DNA of 64,000 bases from Escherichia phage garuso. Shown one piece after another: positions 40,181 through 40,488 of this stretch. How positions within the stretch are numbered: position 1 is the stretch's first letter; each line of letters opens with the position of its first letter. The notes beneath the pieces are model-generated. The model did not search any database, was not told the DNA's origin, and was given only the letters and a program-made list of their open reading frames with translations. A program made the position numbers and the translations under genes. The stretch lies in sequence record MN850566.1; one strand, given 5' to 3'.

Positions 40181-40262
40181 CGGGGCGTATCTCAGCGGTC
40201 TTCTAAACCGCCGTTAACCGAGTAAGTGGAGTATGCGGGTTCGAGTCCTGCCGCCTCGACCA
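40181..40262 (+). tRNA. Atypical tRNA-like gene, anticodon loop TCT (Arg-like); D-arm region not foldable
   Basis: Perfect acceptor (CGGGGCG/CGCCTCG, A73, CCA), T-arm GCGGG-TTCGAGT-CCTGC and anticodon arm GCGGT-CTTCTAA-ACCGC; only 7 nt between acceptor and anticodon stem and a 23-nt variable region. Confidence 0.35.
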
Positions 40263-40405
40263 ATTTAGTTAGCAGATTACTTAGACGACCTTATCGGGTC
40301 TCCGTGTAAGGAGGTGGTCTGTATCTCATGTTTTCCAGAACATGTAAATAATCTGAGAAGGGGCTTTACAGTGTTGTGAAAATACGGTAAGCTTCGAATT
40401 ATAGT

Positions 40406-40488
40406 GTGGGACGATGTTAAGACTCTAAGGCATGAGCAACGGCCTCCAAAACCGTTTCAAAGTGGTTCAACTCCTCCGTCCCATGCCA
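40406..40488 (+). tRNA. Atypical tRNA-like gene, anticodon loop CCA (Trp-like); possibly degenerate
   Basis: Acceptor GTGGGAC/GTCCCAT with CCA end and anticodon loop CTCCAAA on stem ACGG/CCGT; extra nucleotides after the acceptor stem and a weak T-stem. Confidence 0.3.

Follow-up and report, generated by a model that had tools for sequence, protein, structure and literature searches.

Two phage tRNA genes of non-canonical architecture: a tRNA-Arg with a rearranged core and a bulged tRNA-Trp

Are two tRNA-like elements with ordinary ends and odd cores working genes? The question is raised by a 64,000-nucleotide stretch of DNA from Escherichia phage garuso (MN850566.1), hereafter the window, which represents a Felix O1-like phage with a tRNA array. 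In this array (38045-43522), ARAGORN finds 25 tRNAs for 19 amino acids, with Trp and Arg-UCU absent among them, and it makes no call for either element. Among the Arg codons of the window's long ORFs, AGA is the commonest, with a share of 41% and a frequency of 16.8 per 1000. Tryptophan, for its part, is the one amino acid otherwise missing from the array, both by the ARAGORN list and by a study of phage Sf14, which counts 26 tRNAs for 19 amino acids, Trp not among them (PMC12482277). In Sf14 the second element is present without annotation, flanked by Arg-TCT and Ser-TGA genes. A Pfam search with a further ORF of the window, 39369-39863, gave no match.

Both elements are genuine phage tRNA genes, conserved and overlooked by gene finders. 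From the comparisons below, we consider it likely that they are functional tRNA genes of non-canonical architecture and the array's only decoders of AGA (Arg) and UGG (Trp). We infer that they are transcribed, processed, charged by host ArgRS and TrpRS and used by the ribosome, and that the rewired core of the first is equivalent in three dimensions to that of an ordinary tRNA. The parts of both genes are listed in Table 1.

Table 1. Features of the two tRNA genes, in window coordinates
Feature	Position	Strand	Basis
tRNA-Arg(UCU) gene with rearranged core, including encoded CCA	40181..40262	+	Family covariance model, Rfam tRNA, 47-sequence alignment
tRNA-Arg acceptor, 5' strand (partner 40252-40258)	40181..40187	+	All 7 pairs covary in family
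tRNA-Arg 7-nt linker TA-TCTC-A, read as U8, A9, D-stem 3' strand (22-25), A26	40188..40194	+	T8/A9 invariant; CTC pairs with GAG 40220-40222
tRNA-Arg anticodon arm GCGGT-CTTCTAA-ACCGC, anticodon TCT at 40202-40204	40195..40211	+	All 5 stem pairs covary
tRNA-Arg connector CGTTAACC, anticodon stem to 3'-side strand of D-like helix	40212..40219	+	Length variable in divergent members
tRNA-Arg GAG-T-AAGTGGAGTA-T, read as D-stem 5' strand (10-13), D-loop (A14 A15 .. G18 G19 A20 .. A21), U48	40220..40234	+	Nearly invariant in family; un-permutation profile score
tRNA-Arg T-arm GCGGG-TTCGAGT-CCTGC	40235..40251	+	Double-sided changes in 3/5 pairs; canonical TTCGAnT loop
tRNA-Arg acceptor 3' strand, discriminator A73, encoded CCA	40252..40262	+	Family discriminator and CCA counts
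Non-canonical tRNA-Trp(CCA) gene, including encoded CCA	40406..40488	+	12 distinct Ounavirinae sequences, covariation
tRNA-Trp GATG-TTAAGA; TTAAGA is a 6-nt bulge ahead of D-stem strand CTC	40413..40422	+	Invariant in all relatives
tRNA-Trp D-arm: CTC, loop TAAGGCAT (contains GG), GAG	40423..40436	+	Compensatory changes
tRNA-Trp anticodon arm: 5 covarying pairs, conserved C31.A39 (or C.C) mismatch, anticodon CCA at 40446-40448	40438..40456	+	4/5 pairs with double-sided changes
tRNA-Trp T-arm: A49, GTGG-TTCAACT-CCTC, C65	40461..40477	+	Pair 50-64 G-C in 10, U-A in 2; A49 and C65 invariant

A tRNA-Arg gene with a rewired D-arm

Re-reading the sequence bears out the anatomy first described for the tRNA-Arg gene: an acceptor, a T-arm, an anticodon arm with an Arg-TCT loop, only 7 nt between the acceptor and anticodon stems, and 23 nt (CGTTAACCGAGTAAGTGGAGTAT) between anticodon arm and T-arm. 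Measured against the canonical cloverleaf, the 7-bp acceptor (CGGGGCG/CGCCTCG, one G.U), the 5-bp anticodon stem, the 7-nt loop with U33 and purine 37, the 5-bp T-stem and the TTCRAnY loop are all present and covarying; what is missing is the D-arm hairpin between nucleotides 9 and 26, where only TCTC-A stands. The Rfam tRNA model (RF00005) scores the gene at 31.7 bits, above the gathering score of 29; its alignment retains 4 of the 15 D-arm positions, the others being deletions, and takes 20 nt as an insertion in the variable region. Against a covariance model built from its relatives, the window copy scores 99.5 bits (E 1.5e-32), while ordinary tRNAs of the same window reach at most 31 bits.

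Scans of IMG/VR and metagenomes yielded 129 distinct members of this family, many of them related, so that counts over them are not counts of independent events. They come from Felixounavirus, T5-like, rV5-like, phi92-like, jumbo, Vibrio and Streptomyces phages and from metagenomes; homologues with 83-90% identity, hardly ever annotated, occur in T5-like, Asteriusvirus, Vequintavirinae, phi92, Vibrio and Streptomyces phages. The family is phage-specific: among the genomes of 185,579 species we found only 5 true copies, all on MAG contigs. The acceptor and T stems of the window copy are shared with T5-like Klebsiella phages, suggesting horizontal transfer. In an alignment of 47 sequences, 98.7% of cells are paired, all stems covary and 16 of the 20 pairs have double-sided changes; the covariation score is 0.78, compared with about 0.1 in slid controls, and none of 500 shuffles reached it. 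CCA is encoded in 83 of the 129 sequences.

The core had originally been called aberrant. That description, or one of a missing D-arm, is too simple: the linker and the 23-nt region pair with each other in a covarying helix like a D-stem, and a segment resembling a D-loop comes next. In all 129 sequences the linker motif CNC pairs with GNG inside the long region; the middle pair is T-A in 95, A-T in 18, G-C in 15 and C-G in 1, with no mispairs, and it is equally clean in scans whose pattern omitted the linker or the whole 5' half. The helix has 3 bp, of which two are constant, so its support is one covarying pair, perfect in 129 sequences. The segment after GNG resembles the D-loop of tRNA-Arg (A14 A15 .. 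G18 G19 A20 .. A21 U48). Because the linker pairs with a covarying partner and D-loop-like sequence follows, the D-arm, as read from the family's sequences, is present but rewired, with one predicted strand before the anticodon arm and the other after it.

The resemblance can be scored. We built a profile-HMM from 50 canonical phage tRNA-Arg genes and put the D-like segment of each family member back after A9. Native sequences scored 14.4 bits and un-permuted ones 34.5, whereas shuffled controls reached 24.4; the un-permuted order won 99.9% of comparisons. The same manipulation scored with ARAGORN proved unspecific: none of the 129 native sequences and all 129 un-permuted ones were called, as were 119 of 129 shuffled-segment controls, so that this version shows restored spacing only. 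We also discarded a general model in which a variable-arm hairpin (GTTA/TAAY) forms a loop-linker pseudoknot, as position 34-47 does not covary and two family members (L292 and L211) have no GTTAA yet keep GNG-T-AATTGGA. Divergent members have a connector of anywhere between 3 and 10 nt ahead of GNG (AGTC and TTTA are examples), which makes its GTTAA dispensable, and the last base of the connector lies opposite A40194 at a 26.44-like non-Watson-Crick position that swaps among A.C, C.A and A-U in the family. In two members (L152 and L242) an extra 3-bp stem, GTC/GAC, closes the long segment. As a separate observation, GTTAA occurs 15 times in the 5.6-kb array, where about 9.5 occurrences are expected, and it is found in canonical D-loops too; we dropped it as a special shared motif.

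We propose that strand 10-13 and the D-loop segment have left their normal place behind nucleotide 9 and now follow the anticodon arm on its 3' side. The TCTC left after U8-A9 would then serve as D-stem strand 22-25, running directly into A26 and the anticodon stem, and the RNA would be a three-way junction in which the 3-bp D-like helix stacks on the anticodon stem. The AAYTGGA­GTA-T strand would be placed to make the elbow contacts of an ordinary tRNA (A14 with U8, A15 with U48, and G18 G19 with the T-loop) and would also offer A20, an ArgRS identity nucleotide. The bases of these proposed tertiary contacts (U8-A14, A15-U48, G18/G19 with the T-loop) are invariant and thus beyond the reach of covariation, and the direct backbone link from 9 to 22 might preclude the base triple that A9 canonically forms.

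The family carries arginine anticodons only. An unconstrained search gave UCU in 124, CCU in 3 and ACG in 2 of the 129 sequences. E. coli ArgRS recognises A20, C35, U36/G36 and A/G73. C35 and U36/G36 occur throughout the family; the discriminator is a purine in 117 of 129 (G 76, A 41, T 9, C 3; A in the window copy), a G/A preference that we take to fit tRNA-Arg. GGA, whose A would be a putative A20 after G18 G19, is invariant in the transposed segment across the 47-sequence alignment.

Within the Ounavirinae, one genomic slot with the same flanks is occupied by the rearranged gene in about 128 records and by a canonical tRNA-Arg(TCT) in about 110, and at ten loci that hold 11-28 tRNAs plus the rearranged gene, canonical Arg-TCT is absent. 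The two are not strictly exclusive, since one contig (L030) carries a canonical tRNA-Arg(UCU) immediately next to the rearranged one.

A bulged tRNA-Trp gene

The second gene is confined to the Ounavirinae, where we found it in 235 records; 12 distinct sequences were compared. The acceptor with CCA, the CTCCAAA loop and the extra nucleotides after the acceptor are all as first described. The acceptor (GTGGGAC/GTCCCAT) is followed by G73 and CCA, and 10 nt (GATGTTAAGA) separate it from CTC in place of the canonical two-nucleotide spacing and uninterrupted D-stem. Those 10 nt are invariant even in Pectobacterium phages, at about 75% identity, whose versions have a bulged acceptor. Removing exactly 6 nt elicits an ARAGORN call of tRNA-Trp(cca) in 4 of 5 lineages. 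Across the 12 sequences 99.2% of cells are paired, and 8 pairs have double-sided changes, against none in slid controls. The D-stem helix CTC/GAG, for example, becomes CAC/GTG in 4 sequences and ACA/TGT in Pectobacterium phages.

The T-stem had been judged weak and the nucleotides after the acceptor extra. Both features are there, but they are conserved: the bulge is an invariant 6 nt, and the stem is compatible with an 8-bp acceptor and a 4-bp T-stem (8/4). Read as 7/5, the T-stem AGTGG/CCTCC has two mismatches, one of them U.U in the window copy. The T-arm can be read with either a 4-bp stem or a 5-bp stem with a constant A.C mismatch. G40413 is able to form an 8th acceptor pair with C40477, and the minimum-free-energy fold has an 8-bp acceptor. 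As G8, A49 and C65 are invariant in all relatives, 8/4 and 7/5 are indistinguishable by covariation; 8/4 is the probable arrangement. We picture an ordinary cloverleaf order that would accommodate the bulge in the 5' strand of its D-stem and the C31.A39 mismatch in its anticodon stem.

Anticodon CCA and G73 are invariant in all 12 sequences; the loop has two alleles, CTCCAAA and TTCCAAC, each of which retains CCA. G73 and A1-U72 (G.U in the window) match the identity elements of E. coli TrpRS. In Typing phage 8, a conventional tRNA-Trp occupies the same slot.

What the two genes may do

Neither RNA folds more stably than shuffled versions of itself (z = 0.04 for the tRNA-Arg and -0.56 for the tRNA-Trp), and the support that the sequences lend to both is comparative, not thermodynamic. 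The original prediction had named functional odd tRNAs, pseudogenes and mimics as candidates, and the comparative evidence favours the first.

A bolder form of that reading, which strikes us as unlikely though worth stating, treats the rearranged tRNA-Arg as an unrecognised topology (a strand-swapped D-arm in a three-way junction) that would be fully active with bacterial ArgRS, EF-Tu and ribosomes. It would have spread among unrelated phages because its rewired core or elbow hides it from host tRNA-directed defence nucleases, or from the phage's own host-tRNA-destroying enzymes, that read canonical D-arm connectivity. The region 40181-40591, where three non-canonical tRNAs (Arg, Trp and Ser) lie consecutively, would then be an immune-evasive module; its third gene, the tRNA-Ser(TGA) adjoining the tRNA-Trp, looks 8/4-type.

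It is rather less probable still that both RNAs are tRNA mimics acting outside translation, either as decoys or sponges for tRNA-directed defence nucleases or toxins or as regulators that bind ArgRS or TrpRS, with anticodon and identity nucleotides kept as bait and the odd core keeping them off the ribosome. Phage tRNAs are known to counter tRNA-cleaving defences, including PARIS, retron effectors and anticodon nucleases (PMC11464382, PMC11555353, PMC10264068), a deviant core might not suit the ribosome, and both the pair of genes on L030 and the run of three odd tRNAs would fit such a role. Against this stand the retained canonical features: the 7-bp acceptor and 5-bp T-arm that form the EF-Tu-binding branch, the 7-nt anticodon loop with U33, R73 and the encoded CCA. 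Rearranged and canonical genes alternate in one slot at roughly equal frequency, near-complete arrays lack another UCU decoder, AGA is the phage's top Arg codon, and the three Arg anticodons of the family fit synthetase identity better than a single anticodon-specific nuclease. A suggested kinship with structured elements upstream found no support: the spacer there is a conserved leader behind a promoter-like site with no match to the tRNA-Arg family model.

Conservation might instead act on the DNA, the genes being target or homing sites of the HNH endonucleases whose own genes are scattered through phage tRNA arrays, and spreading as selfish cassettes; their likeness to tRNA would be inherited baggage. 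In Roth37 and Kamaji an HNH endonuclease ORF does follow the rearranged gene immediately on its 3' side, HNH annotations overlap or adjoin the match in FelixO1, GEP101 and bumzen, the stems shared with T5-like Klebsiella phages suggest transfer, and cassettes in the slot are cleanly exchanged while the flanks stay conserved. We nevertheless hold this to be very improbable: a DNA recognition site does not predict compensatory changes in four helices whose primary sequence is free, and most loci, the window included, have no adjacent HNH ORF. Homing could account for the spread of the genes, not for their kept structure.

Decay of rearranged or interrupted tRNA genes into pseudogenes, free of selection on the RNA, has next to no chance of being right: ARAGORN misses both genes, some annotators label neighbouring or similar genes 'tRNA-OTHER' or 'Pseudo', truncated relatives of the tRNA-Arg exist (L255, and L292 at 1458-1540) and the window tRNA-Trp has U.U in its T-stem, but every helix of both RNAs has compensatory changes, unpaired segments are nearly invariant, 129 distinct intact versions of the tRNA-Arg occur in unrelated phage lineages and environments, the anticodons are constantly Arg or Trp, and the two genes fill exact gaps of the array. 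The covariation in both RNAs contradicts erosion.

Annotation, meaning and relation to known tRNAs

In 60 sampled GenBank records, the tRNA-Arg gene is annotated as some tRNA in 4 and the tRNA-Trp gene in 0. With both unannotated in nearly all records, Felix O1-like phages have been reported to be without tRNA-Trp (PMC12482277), and studies that compare tRNA content with codon usage are biased. We did not find the architecture described in the literature covered, which included the allo-tRNA paper and a 2020 review of non-canonical tRNAs and reached subscription journals thinly. If the rearranged tRNA-Arg is charged and decodes AGA, then another strand order can also yield the L-shape on which bacterial translation relies; nature would have run, outside mitochondria, an experiment in tRNA architecture, and the gene would be a potential orthogonal scaffold. 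Together, the two tRNAs suggest that bacterial translation tolerates a rewired core. For work on tRNA-targeting defences, a phage-specific family restricted to arginine raises the question of what selects for it.

One close counterpart is canonical tRNA-Arg(UCU), as in E. coli argU and, at the same slot, in phages finno, Sf18 and Tribble. The rearranged gene shares its anticodon loop CUUCUAA, 7-bp acceptor, 5-bp T-arm with TTCGAnT, R73 and CCA, a D-loop-like AAYTGGA with a putative A20, and the same slot and flanks. Its D-stem 5' strand and D-loop, however, come after the anticodon arm, so that the D-like helix surrounds that arm in place of a D hairpin; in addition, the acceptor-stem sequence is unrelated and ARAGORN makes no call. 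Class II tRNAs (Ser, Leu and bacterial Tyr) likewise have a long segment between anticodon stem and T-stem, but in the main family of the rearranged gene this segment does not form a hairpin by itself; the 5' linker pairs with three bases of it, the rest is D-loop-like, and the normal D-arm is absent.

Non-canonical segment order within a gene is also known from the circularly permuted tRNA genes of Cyanidioschyzon merolae. There the permutation exists at the gene level only, and a circular intermediate is turned into a normally connected mature tRNA by eukaryotic/archaeal splicing enzymes. In bacteria, by contrast, no such processing route is evident, and the permuted order of the tRNA-Arg folds as a covarying nested structure.

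Phage tRNA clusters contain 8/4 tRNAs, in a study that reports no Trp anticodon for them (Mukai et al. 2017, PMC5389517). The tRNA-Trp can form 8/4, and in Rfam, where tRNA stays below threshold, its best match is a weak and non-significant one to tRNA-Sec (21.3 bits, E 0.19). Unlike tRNA-Sec, allo-tRNA and the (8/4) tRNA-Ser/His class, it combines a putative 8/4 arrangement with a Trp anticodon, a 6-nt bulge in the D-stem region, a variable region of 4-5 nt in place of a long variable arm, and a D-stem of 3-4 bp with an 8-nt loop in place of a long D-stem with a tetraloop. The tRNA-Arg is 7/5 and unrelated to this class.

Finally, mitochondrial D-arm-lacking tRNAs (type III mt-tRNA-Ser(AGY) and nematode mt-tRNA-Ser(UCU)) are thought to function without a D hairpin and share with the rearranged tRNA-Arg a short connector between acceptor and anticodon stems (PMC7609411). 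In these shortened molecules the D-stem is gone, as are the elbow contacts of G18 G19, and they work with specialised mitochondrial machinery. In the phage gene, unlike a type III tRNA, the connector CNC pairs with GNG in all 129 sequences. At 79 nt before CCA it is longer than normal, it keeps a covarying D-like helix and a GG-containing, D-loop-like strand elsewhere in the molecule, and it would need to function with the ordinary translation machinery of bacteria, in hosts of several phyla.

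Two probable tRNA genes that ARAGORN passes over

Felix O1-like phages (Ounavirinae, Felixounavirus) match this region of the window at 95-99% identity (265 records). The ARAGORN inventory of the window's array has no Trp tRNA, its sole Arg tRNA has anticodon ACG, and neither the Arg(UCU) nor the Trp(CCA) candidate is called. The Rfam tRNA model finds 24 genes in the window, among them a borderline 31.7-bit match at 40181-40259 that aligns only with the D-arm deleted and 20 nt inserted; the best Rfam match for the Trp candidate, to tRNA-Sec, is non-significant. On re-reading the sequence, the anatomy that the original prediction gave for both candidates was exact to the base. 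Single-sequence folding energies of the two were not better than those of shuffles, and are thus uninformative, so the case for both must rest on comparison with relatives.

Coordinates of the features discussed, in the window and in compared phage or viral contigs and loci (L-numbers)
Feature	Location	Strand	Detail
tRNA array	window 38045-43522		25 tRNAs for 19 amino acids (ARAGORN)
164-aa ORF	window 39369-39863	+	between tRNA-Met and tRNA-Ile; stop overlaps tRNA-Ile start
Spacer before Arg candidate	window 39933-40180	+	promoter-like site at start, then leader
Promoter-like site	window 39948-39976		TTGACA-17-TATAGT
Leader hairpin	window 40074-40093		TGAGG/CCTCA
Arg(UCU) candidate	window 40181-40262	+	CGGGGCG-TATCTCA-GCGGT-CTTCTAA-ACCGC-(23 nt)-GCGGG-TTCGAGT-CCTGC-CGCCTCG-A-CCA
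G-TTAA-NN, Arg candidate	window 40213		CGTTAACC-GAG
Trp(CCA) candidate	window 40406-40488	+	GTGGGAC-GATGTTAAGA-CTC-TAAGGCAT-GAG-CA-ACGGC-CTCCAAA-ACCGT-...-GTCCCAT-G-CCA
G-TTAA-NN, Trp candidate	window 40416		TGTTAAGA-CTC
tRNA-Ser(TGA)	window 40502-40591	+	adjoins Trp candidate
Hairpin, ~100 nt	window 40753-40852	+	abuts tRNA-Leu(TAG) 5' end
CCU and divergent UCU versions	L144 12999-13077; 13348-13426
Decayed or interrupted copies	L255 6111-6183; L292 1458-1540	-; +
tmRNA gene	L260 6424-6703	+	tag ANSMNASAFALAA*
Lys(UUU) tRNA-like gene	L312 ~515-600		IMG/VR contig 3300038660_000290
HNH ORFs	L008 (Roth37) 1098-1607; L014 (Kamaji) 1084-1647		directly 3' of rearranged tRNA-Arg
'tRNA-???' genes	L011 563-637; L016 928-997, 2598-2672; L012 1636-1711; L018 262-337		two-base anticodons (ARAGORN)

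A D-arm built around the anticodon arm

By BLAST, the Arg candidate has homologues at 83-90% identity, nearly all unannotated, in several unrelated phage groups: T5-like phages (Roth37, Sugarland, Kamaji), Asteriusvirus jumbo phages, Vequintavirinae (KB57, W70), phi92-like phages, one marine Vibrio phage and Streptomyces phages. After pattern scans of IMG/VR and metagenomes the family stands at 129 distinct sequences, nearly always within a tRNA array. Members score 51-101 bits against a family covariance model (window copy, 99.5), versus at most 38 bits for ordinary tRNAs. Among GTDB representative genomes, true copies number only five, each on a MAG contig, so the element is phage-borne. Of two decayed or interrupted copies, one ends after the connector (the bases between anticodon stem and GNG); in the other, unrelated sequence splits the T-arm, with an intact divergent version 600 nt away. 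On a 64-kb viral contig, a called tmRNA gene adjoins a tRNA array that includes the rearranged gene.

In a 47-sequence alignment of the family, standard pairs fill 98.7% of cells, double-sided changes occur in 16 of 20 pairs and the covariation score is 0.78, versus ~0.1 in slid controls. RNAalifold supports the three classical stems, and stems are far less conserved than unpaired segments. The key observation concerns a CNC in the 7-nt linker before the anticodon stem: its central base covaries with that of the first GNG in the 23-nt "variable region" (T-A 95, A-T 18, G-C 15, C-G 1; no mispairs among 129). The same pairing appears in scans run with a pattern that lacked the linker or, in one case, all of the 5' half. 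The residue that follows CNC and the one that precedes GNG (A.C 97, C.A 15, A-U 10 in the 129-sequence set) swap as a 26.44-type non-Watson-Crick layer would.

In standard numbering the gene runs: acceptor strand 1-7; U8, A9; TCTC (22-25); A26; anticodon arm; a 3-10-nt connector; GNG-T (10-13); A14 A15 Y U G18 G19 A20 .. A21; U48; T-arm; acceptor 3' strand. A D-arm is therefore present, built from two strands flanking the anticodon arm, and the predicted RNA fold is a three-way junction, not a cloverleaf. The core, described as aberrant in the original prediction, is indeed unusual, but its D-arm is rewired rather than lacking, as CNC and GNG pair in all 129 members. When the D segment is moved back after A9 ("un-permuted"), ARAGORN calls tRNA-Arg in 129 of 129; shuffled segments are also called in 119 of 129, so this test is not specific. 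A profile of 50 canonical phage tRNA-Arg genes gives 34.5 bits to un-permuted sequences, 24.4 to shuffled controls and 14.4 to native sequences, with the un-permuted version ahead in 99.9% of paired comparisons. We infer that the rewired core would be equivalent in three dimensions to the canonical one. Two divergent members (L292, L211) have 4-nt connectors, showing that the connector GTTAA is dispensable.

Several independent lines point to the Arg candidate being a working tRNA-Arg. With no anticodon constraint in the scan, only arginine anticodons appear (UCU 124, CCU 3, ACG 2); CCU and UCU versions share one viral contig, ACG versions are on two (L047, L352), and by these sequences the architecture tracks arginine identity, not a single anticodon. 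E. coli ArgRS has A20 as its main identity nucleotide, and the GGA that would supply it never varies across the 47 aligned sequences. A purine discriminator is present in 117/129, CCA is encoded in 83/129, and the candidate's EF-Tu-binding 7/5 branch and anticodon loop are both canonical. In Ounavirinae, the slot between the same flanks is taken by the rearranged gene in ~128 records and in ~110 by a canonical tRNA-Arg(UCU) whose acceptor stem is unrelated. Ten loci, each with the rearranged gene and 11-28 tRNAs, have no canonical Arg-UCU; in the one exception seen (L030), it stands beside the rearranged gene. AGA is the window's top Arg codon (41%).

A probable bulged tryptophan tRNA gene and its neighbours

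The Trp candidate occurs in 235 records, in Ounavirinae only, reaching Pectobacterium phages at ~75% identity, and is annotated as a tRNA in none of 60 sampled records. Across 12 distinct sequences, 99.2% of cells are paired and eight pairs show double-sided changes, versus none in slid controls. Covariation is seen in the D-stem (CTC/GAG, CAC/GTG, ACA/TGT) and anticodon stem (ACGG/CCGT, TAAG/CTTA, TAGG/CCTA), and at pair 50-64 the T-stem switches from G-C to U-A. The original prediction had proposed comparing orthologous loci; across the relatives of both candidates, pairing is conserved by compensatory changes.

GATGTTAAGA is invariant across relatives of the Trp candidate. Once exactly six bases (e.g. 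TTAAGA) are taken out, ARAGORN calls tRNA-Trp(cca) in 4 of 5 lineages; the RNA thus has the usual Trp cloverleaf plus a 6-nt bulge in the 5' strand of the D-stem. G73, A1-U72 (G.U in the window) and anticodon CCA are kept, the last in both anticodon-loop alleles. Were G8 to pair with C65, the constant A49.C65 "mismatch" would give way to an 8/4 arrangement, as the MFE fold draws it; these positions are invariant and give no covariation to decide. A conventional tRNA-Trp occupies the slot in Typing phage 8. The published Sf14 inventory has 26 tRNAs for 19 amino acids, Trp absent (PMC12482277); in Sf14, the candidate sits between Arg-TCT and Ser-TGA. The identical GATGTTAAGA insertion, in matching register behind an 8-bp acceptor strand, is present in a Lys(UUU) tRNA-like gene on a 31-kb viral contig that is unrelated, and this type of bulge may recur outside Ounavirinae.

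The adjoining tRNA-Ser(TGA) scores higher with the Rfam tRNA-Sec model (39 bits) than with the tRNA model (33.2). With the MFE fold that it takes (9-bp acceptor, 5-bp D-stem with tetraloop, 6-bp anticodon stem, long variable arm, 4-bp T-stem), it resembles the (8/4)/allo-type Ser tRNA described from phages, which would make three consecutive non-canonical tRNAs (40181-40591). Upstream, the promoter-like site is the array's best; the ~200-nt leader after it is almost invariant across Ounavirinae, the leader hairpin has three compensatory pairs in Sf18, and Rfam gives only weak tmRNA-model matches on the spacer. The ORF has CxxC ... HH ... CxxCH motifs by eye, reminiscent of HNH endonucleases, and no Pfam match. 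The near-perfect hairpin beside tRNA-Leu(TAG), with only sub-threshold plant miRNA-precursor matches in Rfam, could act in processing or termination. In both odd tRNAs, G-TTAA-NN lies immediately 5' of the 3-nt D-stem strand preceding the D-loop. As the 5.6-kb array has 15 GTTAA sites (~9.5 expected), canonical D-loops included, and some members of the Arg family have none, this likeness may be coincidence. The 'tRNA-???' genes, in rV5-like and phi92-like tRNA arrays, may be further non-standard anticodon loops among phage tRNAs.

Competing readings and known tRNA classes

Both candidates are almost certainly selected structured RNAs and, judged from sequence, probably charged, decoding tRNAs. 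If the DNA itself were conserved, as a target of homing endonucleases, this could help the rearranged gene to spread, as HNH ORFs abut it in Roth37, Kamaji and FelixO1, but it cannot account for the compensatory changes. A non-translational decoy role is possible but less likely, fitting less well with slot equivalence to a canonical gene, codon demand, three Arg anticodons in the family and an intact EF-Tu branch. Among the functional odd tRNAs, pseudogenes and mimics of the original prediction, the first are favoured, and covariation excludes pseudogenes. The architecture of the Arg candidate is of interest in being unexpected, widespread, arginine-specific and directly testable.

A full-text literature search of incomplete coverage found no description of this architecture, which we provisionally regard as new. 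Natural non-canonical tRNAs reviewed in 2020 comprise tRNA-Sec, selC* tRNA-Cys, allo-tRNAs, tRNA-Pyl, and mitochondrial types I-III and armless tRNAs (PMC7609411), and 8/4 Ser and His tRNAs have been described in phages (PMC5389517). Neither set includes a D-stem that spans the anticodon arm. In mitochondrial D-armless tRNAs the helix and the elbow contacts are gone, whereas the Arg candidate keeps the helix and, given three-dimensional equivalence, would keep the contacts, in another order. The Trp candidate is, provisionally, a new but more modest variant near the 8/4 class.
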